A DNA stretch of 64,000 bases from Bacteroidales bacterium (GTDB taxonomy: Bacteria; Bacteroidota; Bacteroidia; Bacteroidales; GCA-2748055): positions 3,269 through 67,268 of the forward strand of contig JAGYMF010000001.1 in NCBI GenBank assembly GCA_018400695.1. The letters run 5' to 3'. A program made the translations under genes and the position numbers. Position 1 is the stretch's first letter. Each line of letters opens with the position of its first letter. Below the pieces are notes generated by a model. It was not told where the DNA came from. It was given only the letters and a program-made list of their open reading frames with translations, and did not search any database. Of this stretch, positions 6,792 through 24,501 are shown in pieces.

Positions 6792-7799
<1,008 letters not shown>

Positions 7800-7813
7800 C
7801 CTTTTCTAAAAGT

Positions 7814-7851
7814 AAAAAAAAGCCACTTCTCACTGAAGTGGCTTTTTTTTT
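7814..7851. terminator. Bidirectional intrinsic terminator between gap and the DUF1987 gene
   Basis: agccactt / aagtggct forms an 8-bp stem with a 7-nt loop, flanked by an A8 run upstream and a T9 run downstream. Confidence 0.75.
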
Positions 7852-7889
7852 GGATAGCAACACCGCAGGCTTTCCACGGTATTTCTCAG

Positions 7890-15538: not shown

Positions 15539-16126
15539 TTAGATTTGCTGAGGCTCCCTGATTTTTCTTCTTAGAAAAATACCACCCACAAGGCCAATCA
15601 GCAGAGAAGCAAATATGAAGGAGGTAAACGACTGCACCGCAAATTTTACCGGCGAAGATTTCATGATCCTCTCCATGGCTTTTTTACGTGACGCTTCCAT
15701 GGTATTCTCAAAAGATTCGTACTGGTCATCCGACAATTTTTCCTGGTACTTCGCATCAGTCTTTGCCAATCTTTCATCCATCTTTTCAATGGCATAATAC
15801 TTTGTGTCCTGCAGATAACTTTCGTCAGCACTGTAGACTGAAAAAGTATAGATACTTGTAAGCAATCCGGCTACCAGGCCAATCATCAGACTCATCCCCA
15901 CAACACGTCCGTAACTGAGGACCTCCCTGGCATATTCAGAACGGTAGAGCACCAGGGTCAACAGGATCAAACCGTAGCTCACCACTGATCCGAGAATAAG
16001 TGCCCATTTTTCGAACGACTGATCAATAAAATACAGGAGCAAACTAACCACGATCGTTGCGAGTCCAACAATCGCCCCGTATACGAGGGCAGGTTTCATA
16101 ACAGGAACCTTTTCTTGATTTTCCAT
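15539..16126 (-). CDS. DUF4199-like membrane protein
   Basis: 195 aa with 4 predicted TM helices and a charged central loop. Its position upstream of the GT2 gene is common in Bacteroidota, as I recall. Confidence 0.65.
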   Translation of the reverse strand: MENQEKVPVMKPALVYGAIVGLATIVVSLLLYFIDQSFEKWALILGSVVSYGLILLTLVLYRSEYAREVLSYGRVVGMSLMIGLVAGLLTSIYTFSVYSADESYLQDTKYYAIEKMDERLAKTDAKYQEKLSDDQYESFENTMEASRKKAMERIMKSSPVKFAVQSFTSFIFASLLIGLVGGIFLRRKIREPQQI

Positions 16127-16198
16127 TGTATTAAATTTTTAAATGAGAGGAACGAAGGCATGAATTTAAGGAAAATGTACGAAATGCAAAAAAAAAAT

Positions 16199-16295
16199 GG
16201 GCAAGCTACTTATATCGCACCGCTACAACCGTCTACCCTTGCTACCTTCCGGTCCTGGGGGAGTTCAACAGGAGCTGGCCGTATAAGACTTGCCC
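16199..16295 (-). ncRNA. ffs: Signal recognition particle RNA (small/4.5S type)
   Basis: The minus strand reads GGGCAAGUCUUAUACGGCCAGCUCCUGUUGAACUCCCCCAGGACCGGAAGGUAGCAAGGGUAGACGGUUGUAGCGGUGCGAUAUAAGUAGCUUGCCC. The ends pair (GGGCAAG/CUUGCCC). The core CAGGACCGGAAGGUAGCAAGG matches the conserved helix-8 GGAA tetraloop region of 4.5S RNA (E. coli CAGGUCCGGAAGGAAGCAGCC). A TATCTTTG -7 box sits 6 nt upstream and a U10 tract follows the 3' end. Confidence 0.85.
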
Positions 16296-16301
16296 AAGTC
16301 A

Positions 16302-16309
16302 CAAAGATA
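16302..16309 (-). promoter_or_regulatory. -7 promoter box (TATCTTTG) for ffs
   Basis: Matches TAnnTTTG on the minus strand, 6 nt upstream of the first paired G of the SRP RNA. Confidence 0.55.
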
Positions 16310-16439: not shown

Positions 16440-17486
16440 TTACACATTCTCCGGTCGTAGTTTTCTCACCACGGCACCGGTGCGCCACATCTCGGAATCT
16501 CTCAGCTCTTTCAGCTCTCCGTCCAGCTTCACACGGTAATCTGGCTGACTATTGGAATCGATGGACACCTGTGCTTCTTCGCCTGACTTCACCCGGTCGT
16601 AGAGCTCTGAAAAAACAGGCTGCACAGCATCCCTGAACTTTTTCCACCAATCGAGTGCCCCTCTCTGGGCAGTCGTAGAGCAGTTGGCATACATCCAGTC
16701 CATACCATTCTCAGCAACCAGTGGCATCAGGCTTTGGGTGAGCTCCTCCACGGTCTCATTAAAAGCTTCTGAAGGGGTATGACCATTTTCCCTGAGCACA
16801 TTATACTGTGCGGCGAAAATTCCCTGGATAGCGCCCATAAGTGTACCTCTTTCACCGGTAAGATCAGAAAAGACTTCCCGTTGGAAATCAGTTTCAAACA
16901 GATAACCGGAGCCAACTGCGATACCCAGCGCAACAACCCTGTCATGCGCTTTGCCAGTTGCATCCTGGAAGATGGCATAGCTGGAATTCAGTCCGCGTCC
17001 TTCAACAAAGAGTCTGCGCAGGCTTGTACCGGACCCTTTTGGCGCAATAAGGATCACATCCACATCATCCGGCGGTACGATCCCTGTTCGTTCTTTATAG
17101 GTAATCCCAAAACCATGTGAAAAGTATAGTGCCTTACCGGCGGTAAGGTGCTTTTTCACTGCAGGCCATAAGGTGATCTGCCCGGCATCGGAGAGCAGAT
17201 ACTGGATAATACTCGCCTTTTCGCATGCATCTTCGATCTCAAAAAGATCTTTCCCCTCAACCCAGCCATCTTTGACAGCCTTCTCCCAGGAGGCGGAATT
17301 CTTACGCTGACCAATGATAACATTGATCCCATTGTCCTTCAGGTTAAGTGACTGTCCAGGACCCTGGACACCGTAGCCGATCACAGCGACCGTCTCGTTC
17401 TTAAGCACTTCCTGTGCTTTTGATAGTGGAAATTCTTCTCGTGTTACGACATTTTCTTCAACGCCGCCAAAATTTATTACAGCCAT
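16440..17486 (-). CDS. ilvC: Ketol-acid reductoisomerase (class I)
   Basis: 348 aa with the GYGVQGPGQSLNLKDNG Rossmann motif. It is the last gene of the ilv operon. Confidence 0.95.
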   Translation of the reverse strand: MAVINFGGVEENVVTREEFPLSKAQEVLKNETVAVIGYGVQGPGQSLNLKDNGINVIIGQRKNSASWEKAVKDGWVEGKDLFEIEDACEKASIIQYLLSDAGQITLWPAVKKHLTAGKALYFSHGFGITYKERTGIVPPDDVDVILIAPKGSGTSLRRLFVEGRGLNSSYAIFQDATGKAHDRVVALGIAVGSGYLFETDFQREVFSDLTGERGTLMGAIQGIFAAQYNVLRENGHTPSEAFNETVEELTQSLMPLVAENGMDWMYANCSTTAQRGALDWWKKFRDAVQPVFSELYDRVKSGEEAQVSIDSNSQPDYRVKLDGELKELRDSEMWRTGAVVRKLRPENV

Positions 17487-17519: not shown

Positions 17520-18080
17520 TCAATTATATGTTAATACTTCATCTTCAGATTCCTTATAATACTGTTCCAGGTCCTTCAGGTAGGAGGTGATCTCCCGGAT
17601 CTGCTTGGTAAGGGCAACCCGTCCTGACCTCGTGAACTGGAGAATTCCAAAAGGCTCCAGCTCCCTGAAAAGCTGTTGTGTATCCTCCTTGTGACCGGTT
17701 TTTTCTACCACGGTATATTCCGGTTCAATGGTAAGTATCCTGGCGTTGTACTTCCTGATCAGGCTCTCCACATCGTCACCGTCAGCAAATGCTTTGGTAG
17801 GCACTTTATACAGTGCGATCTCCTGGTACACAATCTCATCCTCGGTATGATAAAAGGCCTTCAGGATGCCAATCTGCTTCTCGATCTGCCTGGTTACTGT
17901 CTGTACCATTGCCTCGGTTGTATTTACAACGATGGTAAAACGGTAGATTCCGCGAACTTCCGATTCAGAGGTGTTAAGACTGGCAATGCTGAGGTGGCGC
18001 CGTGTAAAGATCACCGTGATCCTGTGCAGCAGACCGATCTTGTTCTCGGTAAATATTGTAATGGTATATTCCTTGTTCAT
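17520..18080 (-). CDS. ilvN: Acetolactate synthase small (regulatory) subunit
   Basis: ACT domain starting YTITIFTENKIGLLHRITVIFTRR. The ATG at 18080 (MNKEY...) is preferred over the ORF-track start at 18116. Confidence 0.9.
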   Translation of the reverse strand: MNKEYTITIFTENKIGLLHRITVIFTRRHLSIASLNTSESEVRGIYRFTIVVNTTEAMVQTVTRQIEKQIGILKAFYHTEDEIVYQEIALYKVPTKAFADGDDVESLIRKYNARILTIEPEYTVVEKTGHKEDTQQLFRELEPFGILQFTRSGRVALTKQIREITSYLKDLEQYYKESEDEVLTYN

Positions 18081-18174
18081 CGCTTTTTTTATTTGAGAAC
18101 TTCCCGTAAATATCATTTCCTTAATTGGAAACAGGATTTTGCAGGAAGCTCCCGGTTCAACTTATTGCATTATT

Positions 18175-19908
18175 TCAGTCAAGTCGCATTTCAGAAACTG
18201 TGCCACCGGCCGGAATCATAGGGAAAATATTTCCCTCTTTCTCAACTTTCACCTCCAGCACAAAGGGACCTTCAAGCACCATCAATGCCTGGAGCTCTTC
18301 TTTCAGACGGTTGCGATCAAACAACTGTTTTCCCGGCACACCAAATCCCTCGGCAATTTTCAGGAAATCCGGATTGACCAGTTCAGTATTGGCGTACCTG
18401 CTCTCAAAGAAAAGCTCCTGCCACTGCCGCACCATTCCGAGGAAATTATTATTCATCAAGATAATCTTAACCGGCAGTTGGTACTGGGCAATCGTTCCAA
18501 GCTCCTGCAGGGTCATTTGAAATCCGCCGTCACCAACGATGACAAAGACAGGTCTTTCCGGTTCTGCCAGTGCAACACCCATTCCCGCCGGAATTCCAAA
18601 TCCCATGGTCCCCAGTCCTCCGGAAGTGATCCACGAATTCTGTTTCCTGTAATTGTAATACCTGGCTGTAGCCATCTGATGCTGTCCCACATCAGAAACA
18701 ATGATTGCTTCTCCATTGGTAATTTCCGACAATGTATTTACCACTTCACCCATCCGCATCTTATCATCCTTGGGGTGGATATCCCTGCTGATTACCTTTT
18801 CAAACTCTGTCTTATGAAGCTCGCCGAATGTTGCCAGCCATTCTGCGTGTGAATTCGGCTTCACCATTGGTATCAGCAACTCAAGTGCCTGCCTCGCATC
18901 GGCATTAATTGCCACATCTGTTTTTACATTTTTATCAATTTCCGACGGATCAATCTCAATATGGATCACCTTCGCCTGTTTGGCATAGGTAGCCAGGTTA
19001 CCGGTCACCCTGTCGTCGAAACGCATCCCAATAGCGATCAGCAGGTCACATTGGTTGGTATTCACATTGGGGGCATAGTTTCCGTGCATCCCAAGCATAC
19101 CGGTATAGAGAGAATGGTTACCCGGGAAGGAAGAGAGTCCCAGCAATGTGCTTGCAACAGGCAGTCCTGCCTTCTCAACGAAAGTCCTGAATTCATCCTC
19201 CGCACCTGAGATGGCAACACCCTGGCCCAGCAGTACCAGCGGACGTTCACAGGTATTGATCAGCTCAGCAGCTGCTTCAATGGAGTTGATCGCAGGTTTA
19301 GGTCTGGGAACATAACTGCTCACGGCTGTCAGCTGTTCATAGGCATACTCCATCTCTTCCATCTGTGCATTTTTTGCAATATCAAGCAATACCGGGCCAG
19401 GCCGACCGGAATTTGCGATAAAGAAAGCTTTTGCAATCGCTTCAGGAATCTCATCTGCTGAGGTGACCTGGTAGTTCCACTTGGTAATTGGCATAGAGAC
19501 ACTTACCACGTCTGTTTCCTGAAAAGCATCGGTTCCCAGGAGGCCGGCAGCTACCTGTCCTGTGATACAAACCAGCGGCGTAGAATCCAGCATGGCATCG
19601 GCCAGTCCGGTTACAAGGTTCGTTGCGCCAGGACCTGAAGTTGTAAAACAGACGCCAGGTTTGCGTTTAATACGGGCATATCCCTGTGCTGCGTGGATGG
19701 CACCCTGCTCATGACGCACCATAACATGTTTGATCCTGTCCTGATAATTATACATCGCATCGTATACCGGCATAATGGCACCTCCGATATAACCAAAGAC
19801 GGTTTCCACATCCTCCGCGAGCAGTGAACGCAGCAGTGCTTCCGCACCGGTAATCTTTGTTACAACCTCGTTTCCGTTTGCACGTGTGGTTTTTGTTTTT
19901 GTTTCCAT
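18175..19908 (-). CDS. ilvB: Biosynthetic acetolactate synthase large subunit
   Basis: 577 aa with ThDP-binding motifs (GGLGTMGFGIPAGMG, VGDGGFQM) and an N-terminal GAEALLRSL...GYIGGAI region. Confidence 0.95.
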   Translation of the reverse strand: METKTKTTRANGNEVVTKITGAEALLRSLLAEDVETVFGYIGGAIMPVYDAMYNYQDRIKHVMVRHEQGAIHAAQGYARIKRKPGVCFTTSGPGATNLVTGLADAMLDSTPLVCITGQVAAGLLGTDAFQETDVVSVSMPITKWNYQVTSADEIPEAIAKAFFIANSGRPGPVLLDIAKNAQMEEMEYAYEQLTAVSSYVPRPKPAINSIEAAAELINTCERPLVLLGQGVAISGAEDEFRTFVEKAGLPVASTLLGLSSFPGNHSLYTGMLGMHGNYAPNVNTNQCDLLIAIGMRFDDRVTGNLATYAKQAKVIHIEIDPSEIDKNVKTDVAINADARQALELLIPMVKPNSHAEWLATFGELHKTEFEKVISRDIHPKDDKMRMGEVVNTLSEITNGEAIIVSDVGQHQMATARYYNYRKQNSWITSGGLGTMGFGIPAGMGVALAEPERPVFVIVGDGGFQMTLQELGTIAQYQLPVKIILMNNNFLGMVRQWQELFFESRYANTELVNPDFLKIAEGFGVPGKQLFDRNRLKEELQALMVLEGPFVLEVKVEKEGNIFPMIPAGGTVSEMRLD

Positions 19909-19970: not shown

Positions 19971-21803
19971 TTAGCGGGTTGAAGGGATCACCCTTACAGC
20001 ACCTTTGTCGGCTGATGTGACCATGGAAGCATATGCCTGCAACGCTTTGCTGACGACCCGGTCTCTTTTAGGTTTCCAACCATCAGGCGAAGCATCCATT
20101 CTTTTCCGCCTGGAACCGAGCTCCTCCGGATCCAGCAGCAGTTGAATGCTCCTTCCTGGAATGCTGATTTCGATCAGGTCCCCGTCTTCAATCAGTCCAA
20201 TGGCACCATGATCTGCAGCTTCAGGAGAGATATGACCAATAGACAACCCGGAAGTACCACCTGAGAAGCGACCATCAGTGATGAGGGCACACTTTTCTCC
20301 CAACTGCCGGGATTTGATATATGAGGTCGGATAAAGCATCTCCTGCATACCAGGCCCTCCTTTCGGACCTTCATACCTGATAACCACCACATCACCTGCC
20401 TTAACACGGTTCTTCAAAATGGCCTCCACCGCATCATCCTGCGCATCAAATACCCTTGCCGTTCCTCTGAAATTCAGTACATTCTCATTCACTCCGGCAC
20501 TTTTCACAATACACCCGTCCTCTGCAATATTTCCATACAAAACAGCCAGACCACCATCAGCAGTATAGGCATGTTCCATATTCCTTATGCATCCGGCCGA
20601 CCGGTCTGTGTCAAGCTCAGCGTACACCGATTCCTGAGAGCCCATTTCCAGGTTGAACCTGCCACCCGGAGCTGCCCCAAATATCATTCCGGCCTCAGGA
20701 CTCCGATCCTTACCCATAATATCATAAGCTTTGATGGCCTCACCGAGGGTTTTTCCATCAACACGGTATACATCCGTTGCAATCCGCCCCCCACGATCAA
20801 GCTCCGCAAGAATCCCAAGGATCCCACCAGCCCTGTTCACATCTTCCACATGGTATGAAGAGCTGGGGGCCACCTTACACAATACCGGGGTAACACGTGA
20901 AAGTGCGTCCATATCCTTCATGGTAAAATCCACCTCAGCCTCTCTTGCTATAGCCAGCAGGTGAAGCACTGTATTGGTCGATCCCCCCATGGCAATATCG
21001 AGGGTCATGGCATTCTCAAAAGCCTTCCTGGTGGCAATAGACCTGGGGAGTACAGACACGTTACCCTCCTCATAATATGCCACAGTATTCCTTACCAGCT
21101 GACGGGCAGCATTATGGAAGAGCTCCTTCCTGTATGCATGTGTGGCAACAACAGTTCCGTTGCCCGGTAATGCCAGCCCTATCGCCTCATTCAGACAATT
21201 CATAGAGTTGGCAGTAAACATCCCGGAGCAGGATCCACAGGTAGGACATGCCGCCATTTCAACACGTAAAAGCTGTTCATCACTTACTTTATCATCTACA
21301 GCCATCACCATGGAATCCACGAGGTCAATGGCCTTTCCTCCATCATTTCCTGCTTCCATAGGACCACCGGAAACAAATATGGTCGGAATATTCAGCCGCA
21401 TAGCGGCCATCAGCATTCCAGGGGTAATCTTATCGCAGTTACTAATGCAAAAGAGCGCATCCACCTTATGGGCATTGGCCATGTACTCAATACTGTCAGC
21501 AATCATATCGCGTGAAGGCAATGAATAGAGCATGCCATCATGTCCCATGGCAATCCCGTCATCAATTGCAATGGTATTGAACTCAGCAGCAAAATATCCC
21601 ATGGATTCAATGATCCCTTTAACCTCCTGACCGATATGGTGCAGGTGGGCATGACCCGGCACAAACTGCGTGAAGGAATTCGCTATGGCGATCACCGGCT
21701 TACCCATCTGCTCTTCCTTCATTCCGTTGGCACGCCAAAGACTCCTGGCTCCCGCCATCCGGCGCCCCATGGTTGTTGTATGACTCCTGTACGTATGTTT
21801 CAT
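19971..21803 (-). CDS. ilvD: Dihydroxy-acid dehydratase
   Basis: The N-terminus [27 protein letters not shown] parallels E. coli IlvD, and Fe-S Cys motifs are present. The ATG at 21803 is preferred over the TTG at 21809. Confidence 0.95.
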
Positions 21804-21816
21804 TGTCAACTGTCTT

Positions 21817-21886
21817 AAAGCAGAAAAGCCATCCTCTTTGATGAGAATGGCCTCTTATTTTTTAAAATAGTCTACACCATTCTCAT
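21817..21886 (-). promoter_or_regulatory. ilv operon transcription attenuator (alternative antiterminator/terminator hairpins)
   Basis: On the minus-strand RNA, segment A is AUGAGAAUGGU (21886-21876, overlapping the leader stop codon), segment B is GCCAUUCUCAU (21851-21841) and segment C is GAGGAUGGC (21836-21828). A:B pairs over 11 bp. B:C pairs over 9 bp with a 6-nt loop and is followed by UUUUCUGCUUU, 14 nt before the ilvD ATG. B is shared, so the two structures exclude each other. Confidence 0.7.
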
Positions 21887-21948
21887 GTTGGAAAGATCAC
21901 GATGACCACCACTAGTACGAGAATAATATGTAGACAATCTAGTTTCAT
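21883..21948 (-). CDS. ilv leader peptide (21 aa)
   Basis: The sequence ATG AAA CTA GAT TGT CTA CAT ATT ATT CTC GTA CTA GTG GTG GTC ATC GTG ATC TTT CCA ACA TGA translates to MKLDCLHIILVLVVVIVIFPT. Thirteen of the 21 residues are Ile/Leu/Val, including 11 consecutive. The stop codon lies inside antiterminator segment A. Confidence 0.65.
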   Translation of the reverse strand: MKLDCLHIILVLVVVIVIFPT

Positions 21949-21966
21949 ATGCTGTATAACATGGAC

Positions 21967-21997
21967 CAAAGATAAAGATAAAATCAATACACAAAAA
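21967..21997 (-). promoter_or_regulatory. Candidate ilv operon promoter (-33 TTTG and -7 TATCTTTG)
   Basis: On the minus strand, TTTG lies at 21997-21994 and TATCTTTG at 21974-21967, with a 19-nt spacer. The leader ATG is 19 nt downstream of the -7 box. Confidence 0.5.
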
Positions 21998-22098
21998 CTT
22001 TTTAAGAAAAAATTACAATTTAATTAACAGTTGAAAGCTTGGATAGCTGTAATACAATCAGAATGAAAGTAAGTTACAGGAATTGTGTCTGTAAAAAT

Positions 22099-24501
22099 TT
22101 AATCAACCTGAATAGAATCGTAATAATCACACGGCCTGATAAAAGCCTCTCTAAAACCCTTTGCCCTTACCTCTTTAAGTATGTGGCGGGCCTCATTGAT
22201 TCCGCTATAATTGCCATATACATACCGGTACATACCGTCCGAACCCTTAAATACCCGGACACCCTCCAACTGGCTGAAATAGGATAACTCTACCGGATTT
22301 TTCAGGGCCATGATCTGGATAGTAAAACCATCTGCCCTGCGCCCCTCCTCTAAACGCTCATCTTTGAAACCACTCCTTTCCTCCACAACCTGTTCAAACC
22401 TGCGGTTCTCAATTACACCGGCATCCCTGTACCCTTCATCAATAACCTCTTCGAGCGCCTTCTGGGCTTCAGAACGCGTTTCAAAATTATCGAGTGTATA
22501 CATTACCGACGCCCCTGTCAGGATCAGTGTAATATCCCTGTCATACAGAAAAAGCGGAATGGTATCGTTAAAATCAAAGGTTTCCAGAAGCAGAATGGAA
22601 TATACTTTATCCTGTTCTGGCACAAGATGCAGGGGAACGAAAAGTTCTGCCAGGCGCACCCTGTTATGTCCCTGTTTATCTATTCTCACAGAGACATTCC
22701 GGTTCAGCGCCCGCCCTTTCGGGGCATCGGTGCCATCTGCATAGGTATTGATTGCTACAGGATTATGTTCGCCGGCAGCAACAACCTTTATCCGGTCACC
22801 GGAGACACCCTTACCAACCAGGTAATCCTTTACACCCAGAGCCCGCTTCTCCGAAAGTATTTCATTGTACGCCGAAGATCCCTTTGAATCAGCATGCCCT
22901 ACAAGCTCTATCGTTATATCCCGGAATGCCTTCATCATATCGGCAACATAACCGACCTCTTTTTCAGCCTCCTCACTGAGCGCTGTCGAATTGTAGTCAA
23001 AAAGTATCCTCCCGGAAATATAATAGTAAGATCCGTCCTTCTTCTCCGGATCTGAAACTCTAATAGGTTTTTCAGCTGAAAGCGCTTCAGTTTCCGTCAC
23101 TGCCCGGTTCACCGTGGGTGTTATCCCGCCGGCAGAGGAATCTCTCTCCGCCTCAGCAAGGAGCGATCCCTGCCCGGTCAACGCAACCGTATCTTCTTCC
23201 TCCAGCCAGACAACAGCGTAGATGCCATCGGTGCTTTCATTGCTTTCCCTTCCCCGTGCGTAGTAGTTCTTATTTTCATCCCAGCCGGGATTATAAAACA
23301 GGTCATCACCGGGTGTTGAAATCGGGAAACCGAGATTTCTGACATTGGAAAATGTACCATCCCTGTTTTTCTGTGCTGTAAATACATCAAATCCTCCCAT
23401 GGTTTCATGTCCCTCAGAACTAAAATAGAGGATCGAGTCGTTCCCCAAAATAAACGGTGTTTCCTCCTGGTAATATGTATTGACCTCGGCACCCAGGTTT
23501 TCTGGTTTACTCCACCTTCCCCGTTCATTGCGCACAGACATATATATATCCATTCCACCCCAACCATTTTTCCTGTCACTGGTAAAATAGAGCGTCTGGT
23601 TATCTGCACTGATGCTTGCATGTGTTTCAGAATAACCCGTGTTAATCGGGGATCCGATGCTTTTTGCTGCAGACCAGGATGCTCCGTCATAAACACTTGT
23701 ATAGATATCAGGAGTAAATCCTGAAGTAGAAACCAGATACAACTCTTTTCCGTCCCACGACAGGGAGGACGGGTAATAACTTCCTGGCATATCCAGCTGA
23801 TCATCAATAATAACCGGGTCTGACCAGACACTATCCTTTTCTAGTAACATCGCCGTTTGGGTTCCTTCGCTACCTGTAATCCTCATTACCATTACCGAAC
23901 CATCGCCTGAAATAACAGGGTGGCTGACGCTTTTTCCTTCAACCCGGGTATGTGTAAGCGGAATAAATTCAACCCTGCGCGGATCCTGAACCATCTCCCG
24001 GGCAAGTTCACTGGAGTTAATGAACATATTTGTATATTCGATTTCGGCAAAAGAGAGTTTGTCTAACATGTTTTTGTAACTGTTGAATGCCCCGATGGCC
24101 TTGTCGAATTCATAGTTACGCAGGTAACTTTTCCCCAGCAGGAAAAATGCCAGTGGCGGTGCGCTGGTCTCAAAGTGCGACCCCTCCCTGTAATATTCAT
24201 TGATCGATAACACAGCTTTCTCGAAATGGCGGATGGTCACATCCGGCGGGCTGCCAATTTTCATTTGACAGTAGCCGGTCAAAAAATGAATATTGCTGTT
24301 CAGTGAATCGATATGCAGTATCTGTCTGTAAACATCCAGGGCACTGTGGTAATCCTTTTCTATAAAGTGGGCCTCAGCATCCCTGAACAGGTCACGAAAC
24401 ACCCTGGGATCCTGCGCCCCGATATTGCCTGCAATAAACAGCAGGGATACGAACAGCATAAGGAAAATACCAGGTTTCTTCCGTGTGTTCTCTGTTTTCA
24501 T
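22099..24501 (-). CDS. Multidomain envelope protein: TPR + TolB-like PD40 beta-propeller + OmpA-like peptidoglycan-binding domain + C-terminal SPOR-like domain
   Basis: 800 aa with a signal peptide and N-terminal TPR-like repeats. PD40-type repeats are present (SISADNQTLYFTSDR, ILYFSSEG). The OmpA_C motif is GHADSKGSSAYNEILSEKRALGVKDYL...RALNRNV. The C-terminal FTIQIMALKNP...YRYVYGNYSGINEARHILKEVRAKGFREAFI resembles SPOR. Confidence 0.75.
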   Translation of the reverse strand: MKTENTRKKPGIFLMLFVSLLFIAGNIGAQDPRVFRDLFRDAEAHFIEKDYHSALDVYRQILHIDSLNSNIHFLTGYCQMKIGSPPDVTIRHFEKAVLSINEYYREGSHFETSAPPLAFFLLGKSYLRNYEFDKAIGAFNSYKNMLDKLSFAEIEYTNMFINSSELAREMVQDPRRVEFIPLTHTRVEGKSVSHPVISGDGSVMVMRITGSEGTQTAMLLEKDSVWSDPVIIDDQLDMPGSYYPSSLSWDGKELYLVSTSGFTPDIYTSVYDGASWSAAKSIGSPINTGYSETHASISADNQTLYFTSDRKNGWGGMDIYMSVRNERGRWSKPENLGAEVNTYYQEETPFILGNDSILYFSSEGHETMGGFDVFTAQKNRDGTFSNVRNLGFPISTPGDDLFYNPGWDENKNYYARGRESNESTDGIYAVVWLEEEDTVALTGQGSLLAEAERDSSAGGITPTVNRAVTETEALSAEKPIRVSDPEKKDGSYYYISGRILFDYNSTALSEEAEKEVGYVADMMKAFRDITIELVGHADSKGSSAYNEILSEKRALGVKDYLVGKGVSGDRIKVVAAGEHNPVAINTYADGTDAPKGRALNRNVSVRIDKQGHNRVRLAELFVPLHLVPEQDKVYSILLLETFDFNDTIPLFLYDRDITLILTGASVMYTLDNFETRSEAQKALEEVIDEGYRDAGVIENRRFEQVVEERSGFKDERLEEGRRADGFTIQIMALKNPVELSYFSQLEGVRVFKGSDGMYRYVYGNYSGINEARHILKEVRAKGFREAFIRPCDYYDSIQVD

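Follow-up and report, generated by a model that had tools for sequence, protein, structure and literature searches.

A leader element upstream of ilvD-ilvB-ilvN-ilvC

The element described here is a short leader in a 64-kb stretch of DNA (64,000 nucleotides, hereafter the window) from a Bacteroidales bacterium (GenBank assembly GCA_018400695.1, contig JAGYMF010000001.1, positions 3,269 to 67,268). It was read on the minus strand, where it covers the 21810-21997 region upstream of an operon for branched-chain amino acid synthesis. All four operon genes lie on the same strand: ilvD, the first structural gene, encoding dihydroxy-acid dehydratase (19971..21803; NCBIfam NF009103, 1027 bits), ilvB, encoding the acetolactate synthase large subunit (18175..19908; TIGR00118, 705.8 bits), ilvN, encoding the small subunit of that enzyme (17520..18116; TIGR00119, 101.2 bits), and ilvC, the last gene, encoding ketol-acid reductoisomerase (16440..17486; TIGR00465, 321.8 bits). 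These identities come from NCBIfam equivalog models and agree with the gene order given in an earlier, model-made reading of this DNA (the original prediction), which had proposed a leader-peptide attenuator in front of ilvD. The ilvD start, an ATG at 21803, was set by N-terminal agreement with relatives.

At the upstream end of the leader are two sequences that resemble a Bacteroidota-type promoter: a candidate -33 element, TTTG (21992..21995, minus strand), and a candidate -7 element, TATCTTTG (21967..21974, minus strand), which fits the consensus TAnnTTTG and ends 18 nucleotides (nt) before the leader ATG. Both had been placed correctly before, although the spacer between them is 17 nt and not 19 nt. 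The GTTTTTG..TATTGATTTTAT stretch is kept in same-genus relatives, and the TAnnTTTG box recurs at the matching place in relatives as TATATTTG or TATCTTTG, a pattern consistent with promoter function.

Downstream of this putative promoter lies a leader open reading frame (ORF), MKLDCLHIILVLVVVIVIFPT, of 21 codons plus a TGA stop (21883..21948, minus strand; ATG at 21948, TGA at 21885-21883). Thirteen of its 21 residues are Ile, Leu or Val (Leu x4, Ile x4, Val x5), and codons 8-18 form a run of 11 consecutive codons for these amino acids, just as the original prediction had read them. A run of this length is unique in the window, where the next-longest is 6 among 681 ATG-started ORFs of 10-60 codons, and it was reached in none of 100 first-order Markov shuffles of the window.

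Four segments of the leader, all on the minus strand, can pair with one another. Segment 1, GUCUACAU-AU-UAUUCUCGU (21917..21935), lies inside the ORF at codons 5-11 and is made of His-Ile-Ile-Leu-Val codons. Segment 2, AUGAGAAUGGUGUAGAC (21870..21886), contains the leader stop and has either segment 1 or segment 3 as its partner; its first 11 nt, AUGAGAAUGGU (21886-21876), had been recognized earlier as segment A. Segment 3, AGAG-GCCAUUCUCAU (21841..21855), extends the former segment B (GCCAUUCUCAU, 21851-21841) by 4 nt, and segment 4, GAGGAUGGC-UUUU (21824..21836), contains the former segment C (GAGGAUGGC, 21836-21828) and is the 3' arm of the terminator. The terminator stem core is followed by a U-rich tract, UUUUCUGCUUU (21817..21827, minus strand), which does precede the ilvD ATG as had been noted, at a distance of 13 nt rather than 14 nt.

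Alternative pairings within the leader

The minimum free energy (MFE) fold of the 166-nt leader contains a 1:2 helix of 17 bp and a 3:4 helix of 13 bp, with a total of -47.5 kcal/mol. Shuffled leaders averaged -32.7 kcal/mol (z = -4.2), and none of 200 folded as well. In this structure the 1:2 helix joins 21935-21917 to 21886-21870, forming a hairpin of -23.9 kcal/mol. The 3:4 terminator has a core of 9 bp between GCCAUUCUC and GAGGAUGGC (-13.3 kcal/mol), and since AGAG pairs with CUUU the stem grows to 12-13 bp and -17.5 kcal/mol. The competing 2:3 antiterminator is a helix of 11 bp, comprising 10 Watson-Crick pairs and one G-U pair between AUGAGAAUGGU and GCCAUUCUCAU (-15.8 kcal/mol). The 11-bp A:B and 9-bp B:C pairings of the original prediction were therefore present as described. 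Its three-segment architecture was incomplete, in that it lacked segment 1 and the 17 bp that this segment forms with segment 2; its reading of the element as a ribosome-mediated attenuator is supported by the conservation, helix and composition data below.

To represent a transcript in the course of synthesis, the RNA was ended before segment 4 and folded with a 30-nt ribosome footprint masked. With no ribosome, the 1:2 helix was present and segment 3 remained unpaired. When the A site was placed at codons 9-15, segment 1 was covered and the 11-bp 2:3 helix was present, and when it was placed at the stop codon, segment 2 was covered. Folding the leader to compare its structures, a check that the original prediction had proposed, recovered the 1:2, 2:3 and 3:4 alternatives, and the masked folds reproduce the logic of textbook attenuation.

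The locus has four features expected of ribosome-mediated attenuators. These are a short ORF rich in codons for the end products of the operon (MKLDCLHIILVLVVVIVIFPT), an intrinsic terminator between this ORF and the first structural gene, an antiterminator incompatible with the terminator and blocked in its turn by a segment that overlaps the regulatory codons, and a stop codon (UGA, 21885-21883) placed so that a terminating ribosome would cover segment 2.

Conservation and distribution of the ilvD leader

A DNA search recovered the leader at 76-87% identity in 10 of 12 same-genus genomes, and in partial form in five other genera. All 17 aligned family-level leaders (17/17) have an Ile/Leu/Val-rich ORF whose UGA falls within UGAGAAUGGU or UGAGGGUGGU, that is, in segment 2. 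At the level of the order the stop lies in segment 2 in most leaders and a few nt upstream or downstream of it in a few. In the 17-sequence alignment, T is invariant at the second position of nine codons in a row, whose third positions vary; this indicates selection on hydrophobic codons and not on the peptide sequence. The U-tract is present in every aligned relative, and the RNAalifold consensus on the alignment consists of the 1:2 and 3:4 helices.

A covariance model, R1, was built from this alignment, and the window leader, being among the 17 sequences used to build it, scored 140.7 bits. R1 matched 87 of 91 same-family genomes, including 53 of the 54 of high quality and all 14 genera, as well as 39 of 151 genomes sampled across families of the order Bacteroidales. 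From the rest of the phylum, 3 of 150 genomes gave a match at E <= 1e-4; two of these were rejected as plain terminators, and the sole convincing match outside Bacteroidales in this sample stands before an ilvE-first operon. Downstream genes were checked for 41 R1 matches outside the window's genus, a set that includes one second copy from a same-genus genome. Thirty-eight lie directly upstream of an IlvD homologue with 69-89% identity, and the remaining three precede a distant dehydratase paralogue, leuA and gltB, one each. Thus the Ile/Leu/Val-rich ORF and the pairing segments are kept before ilvD in relatives, with some compensatory changes, as the original prediction had expected. The window leader itself has the Ile/Leu/Val-rich ORF, the UGAGAAUGGU / GCCAUUCUCA / GAGGAUGGC core and the position before ilvD that characterize this Bacteroidales ilvD-leader RNA.

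Several individual matches deserve mention. One same-genus genome (L017, G007:C105:10022-13078) carries two leaders on one contig, 7.5 kb apart. The second, MIKNHTILLVLVVIVLIEMMK, has diverged, and 178 nt downstream of it is another ilvD, whose product shares 73% identity with the window IlvD; to judge from its sequence, this locus could be an ilvD duplicate that has its own attenuator, or else an artefact of chimeric assembly. A locus from another order of the same class (L198, G344:C1:1580469-1583607) has an R1 match, MIKSNIISIVISVVIIGS, with a terminator; behind this leader is a second Ile/Leu/Val-rich start (MKLSIVIIRVI...), and ilvE lies 317 nt downstream. This arrangement may represent a tandem leader pair before an ilvE-first operon, as in Flavobacterium. 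Within the window, a further R1 match (7732-7854, plus strand, E 0.86) was discarded as nothing but an intrinsic terminator, AAGCCACTTCTCACTGAAGTGGCTTTTTTTT, after a GAPDH-like gene. That terminator resembles the 3:4 hairpin of the attenuator in sequence.

Helix support across 54 leaders

Helix statistics were calculated from an alignment (A3) of 54 leaders, and controls were generated by sliding the partner strand. The three helices were paired in 89-98% of cells, compared to 39-62% in the slid controls. The 1:2 helix was 89.4% paired, with seven pairs changed on both sides, and the 3:4 helix was 98.5% paired, also with seven pairs showing compensatory change. Compensatory change is thus seen in fourteen pairs, and none of 500 shuffles reached the observed covariation. 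The 10-bp core of the 2:3 helix, which is not part of the R1 model, was 96.5% paired versus 39-52% when slid, and both sides had changed at 3 of its 10 core pairs (4 of all 11 pairs). Informative changes in distant members include GUGGGAG with CUUCCCAC and UGGGAAUG with CAUUCCCA.

Folding each sequence on its own gave a similar picture. The terminator was part of the MFE structure in 52 of the 54 leaders, segment 2 paired with an upstream segment in 51, and once the upstream part was masked, the 2:3 helix formed in 51. Together, these results confirm that the Ile/Leu/Val leader ORF and the mutually exclusive hairpins before ilvD-ilvB-ilvN-ilvC are real and conserved.

Leader codons follow the downstream operon

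To obtain loci chosen by the RNA core alone, the pattern TGAGAATGGT..GCCWTTCT..GRAWGGC was scanned in ~185,000 species genomes. The scan returned at least 119 loci. Nearly all of those listed belong to Bacteroidales, chiefly Prolixibacteraceae, Mariniphaga and Draconibacterium, with a few Cyclobacteriaceae. Among the loci listed, leaders before ilvD (n=31) contain 17% Ile, 18% Leu and 22% Val, whereas leaders before leuA (n=60) contain 25% Ile, 23% Leu and 1% Val. If the ORF encoded just any hydrophobic peptide, there would be no reason for Val to be shunned only before the leucine branch. This contrast is the strongest argument that the leader ORF would be read codon by codon.

The ~60 leuA-leader loci are found among L079-L196 of those listed and share the RNA core together with an Ile/Leu-rich, almost Val-free ORF (for example, MKNIINISILSLTLGIILLIKKK). 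Carriers include L088, L106 (Gaoshiqia hydrogeniformans), L182 (Tangfeifania diversioriginum) and L128 (Saccharicrinis sp.), and there are cultured strains among them. Core-pattern matches in an Anaerolineales metagenome-assembled genome (MAG), an Armatimonadota MAG and Chelatococcus had neither an Ile/Leu/Val ORF nor an ilv gene and were set aside as chance matches or plain terminators.

Proposed mechanism and alternative explanations

Taken together, the leader elements, the alternative ways in which they pair, and the conservation and ilvD linkage that they show make it very likely that a classical four-segment, ribosome-mediated transcription attenuator controls ilvD-ilvB-ilvN-ilvC. In such a scheme transcription would start a few nt past the TATCTTTG box and the 21-codon ORF would be translated at once. 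With plentiful charged Ile, Leu and Val tRNA, the ribosome would reach the UGA and cover segment 2, leaving segments 3 and 4 to pair and transcription to terminate at the U-tract. If Ile, Leu or Val tRNA were scarce, a ribosome stalled at about codons 8-15 would cover segment 1, and the 2:3 helix would form as soon as segment 3 was made; the terminator would then be blocked and the operon transcribed. Without any ribosome, the 1:2 and 3:4 helices would both form, again with termination as the expected outcome. Most likely, then, the operon would be switched on when Ile, Leu and Val run short.

The leader peptide is strongly hydrophobic and has a faint similarity to a TatA-type transmembrane helix (best E 0.005, 16 bits versus a cut-off of 54, far below threshold), as would be expected if the mini-ORF were an independent gene for a small membrane peptide and the hairpin its plain terminator, with no sensing involved. 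However, the peptide sequence is not kept in relatives, which instead retain the Ile/Leu/Val codon content and the segment 2 position of the stop, and composition tracks the downstream operon, Val falling from 22% before ilvD to 1% before leuA among the loci listed. The conserved antiterminator would also have no purpose in such a gene. Moreover, the 13 nt between the U-tract and the ATG leave no room for a second promoter, and ilvD would therefore be without a transcript unless the terminator were read through. We consider a membrane-peptide gene extremely improbable. Much the same holds for the idea that the terminated leader acts chiefly in trans as a small RNA (sRNA) from the 5' region, with ilv control secondary. 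The best Rfam match is indeed the Bacteroides sRNA GibS, but this match is weak, non-significant and terminator-driven (E 1.3, 22 bits versus a gathering score of 115). The linkage of the element to ilvD in 38 of the 41 checked matches outside the window's genus, together with the presence of a conserved ORF, leaves this role scarcely credible.

Terminator and antiterminator alternatives are common to all mechanisms of this general kind, including those in which a trans factor such as an RNA-binding protein, an uncharged tRNA (as in T-boxes) or a small ligand throws the switch in place of the ribosome. Yet no T-box, riboswitch or other Rfam family matched the region, even at E up to 10. The leader transcript is also only ~140 nt long and, the ORF aside, has no conserved unpaired motif, while codon-periodic conservation and a stop within segment 2 are features particular to sensing by the ribosome. 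Control by a trans factor is accordingly judged highly unlikely.

Several observations weigh against ribosome-mediated attenuation or call for qualification of it. We infer translation of the leader ORF from its conservation only, in a phylum without Shine-Dalgarno-led initiation. The U-tract is interrupted. In the complete leader at equilibrium the terminator beats the antiterminator even with the stalled-ribosome mask, and the switch must therefore be kinetic, depending on co-transcriptional order as in enterobacteria. Similarly, when the transcripts of relatives are ended before segment 4, 33 of 54 favour the 2:3 helix over 1:2 in stability, and default termination in these leaders would be a matter of kinetics. 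The helix cores vary hardly at all in sequence, probably because segment 1 consists of the sensed codons (AUU AUU CUC GU) and the other segments must match it, and covariation is consequently modest. A generic scan, ill-suited to Bacteroidota promoters, did not flag the 3:4 site as a terminator and gave only chance-level sigma-70 promoters. Finally, a search of sequencing runs returned one DNA run, a salt-lake metagenome with 0.64 of the sampled words, which is the likely source, and a metatranscriptome (0.04 of sampled words) whose contigs cover only short diverged ilvD coding pieces of other organisms and none of the leader.

The RNA core upstream of gltB

The segment 2-4 core and terminator also occur upstream of gltB, which encodes the glutamate synthase large subunit. 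Here a TAnnTTTG box precedes an ORF of ~17 codons that ends at the TGA of TGAGAATGGT and is not rich in Ile, Leu and Val; instead it contains 14% Asn and 17% Lys (for example, MKNFDKKYSANNKNDTA). The gltB loci listed are L082, L091, L096, L103, L110, L138, L140, L141, L157, L167, L168 and L172, and also L071. From its sequence, the gltB leader may be a different attenuator on the same scaffold. It is possible, though doubtful, that the segment 2-4 core serves as a reusable Bacteroidales cassette, retargeted by swapping the ORF: Val/Ile/Leu before ilvD, Ile/Leu before leuA and Asn/Lys before gltB. Should the gltB version respond to translation, an attenuator not described before would tie nitrogen assimilation to a charged-tRNA signal, and the ilvD, leuA and gltB leaders would form one paralogous cis-regulon.

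Genes flanking the operon

A gene for the signal recognition particle (SRP) RNA (Bacteroidales_small_SRP, 16195-16302, minus strand, 107 bits) directly follows ilvC and has a TATCTTTG box just upstream. Because this is a separate gene, the ilv operon comprises four genes; the SRP RNA also supports placement of the host in Bacteroidales. Beyond it are genes for a DUF4199 protein and a glycosyltransferase (15539-16126, minus strand), neighbours unrelated to amino-acid synthesis. On the upstream side lies a gene for an 800-residue PorE/OmpA-like outer-membrane protein (22099-24501, minus strand), likewise with no relation to amino-acid synthesis, and there is no obvious terminator between it and the putative ilv promoter.

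Comparison with known systems

Rfam holds no relevant leader family for the 21500-22300 region at E up to 10, nor did one appear in the whole-window scan at gathering score, the outcome of a further check that had been proposed for this locus; T-box and riboswitch architectures were likewise absent from the same region at that E limit. Against Pfam and NCBIfam, the leader peptide gave only sub-threshold hydrophobic matches. The leuA leaders with this core have no catalogue entry that we could find. In Prolixibacteraceae and other Bacteroidales, these are like the ilvD leader in having an identical segment 2-4 core and an ORF that ends at the segment 2 TGA, but differ in that the ORF is Ile/Leu-rich with almost no Val and the downstream gene encodes 2-isopropylmalate synthase. 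The evidence supports the view that the ilvD leader, though new and in no catalogue, belongs to a well-known class of regulator whose mechanism is textbook. A widespread branched-chain cis-regulator of Bacteroidales without an Rfam, Pfam or NCBIfam model represents an annotation gap; with such models available, both the premature terminator and the leader ORF could be annotated in thousands of genomes and MAGs. Vitreschak and colleagues are said to have predicted attenuators in some Bacteroidetes/Chlorobi in 2004.

Our literature search turned up neither a publication on an ilvD leader of Bacteroidales nor a mechanistic experiment on such leaders in Bacteroidota. The original prediction, which knew of no experimentally characterized leaders of this kind in the phylum, is nearly right, the exception being an ilvE leader inferred in Flavobacterium psychrophilum (PMC9723704). 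From transcriptome maps of this species, Guerin et al. 2021 (PMC9723704, SI D9 and Table S7) described a 'leader peptide attenuation element' before ilvE-ilvD-ilvB, with an Ile-rich 25-residue ORF, MRKFNIIPSIIIAIVIITTAKGML, in a structured 5' region; the his, phe and trp operons were assigned comparable elements. This leader belongs to the same phylum and likewise places an Ile-rich ORF before a branched-chain operon with ilvD and ilvB. It differs in coming from Flavobacteriales, in its far longer 5' region (437 nt) and in having ilvE as the first gene, and it is by description that it is set beside R1. A B. thetaiotaomicron transcriptome paper treats leader-like small ORFs in general terms only, and ilvD does not appear in its supplements.

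Comparative genomics also led to the prediction of the Bacteroid-trp leader (Rfam RF01692; Weinberg et al. 2010, PMC2864571), another candidate for leader-peptide attenuation of amino-acid biosynthesis genes in Bacteroidota; it differs in its Trp codons and trp genes, and it gave no match to the window locus in the Rfam scan. With a textbook mechanism and a comparable element already described in a Flavobacterium, the ilvD leader would not surprise a specialist.

The classical ribosome-mediated leader attenuators are ilvL (ilvGMEDA), ivbL (ilvBN) and leuL of E. coli and Salmonella. The ilvD leader resembles them in its ORF of end-product codons, in its 1:2, 2:3 and 3:4 pairings followed by a U-tract, and in the logic of ribosome position; it shares with ilvL in particular a multivalent Ile/Leu/Val content. 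In contrast, it has no sequence relation to the enterobacterial leaders, matching no leader model in Rfam, Pfam or NCBIfam. It also occurs in another phylum, with a Bacteroidota-type promoter, no Shine-Dalgarno sequence and an ilvD-ilvB-ilvN-ilvC operon, and it differs in design, segment 1 being built from the regulatory Ile-Ile-Leu-Val codons and the stop lying inside segment 2. A phylum with other promoters and no Shine-Dalgarno-led initiation apparently also relies on transcription-translation coupling of the enterobacterial type, and the ilvD leader makes a simple test of such coupling in Bacteroidota possible.

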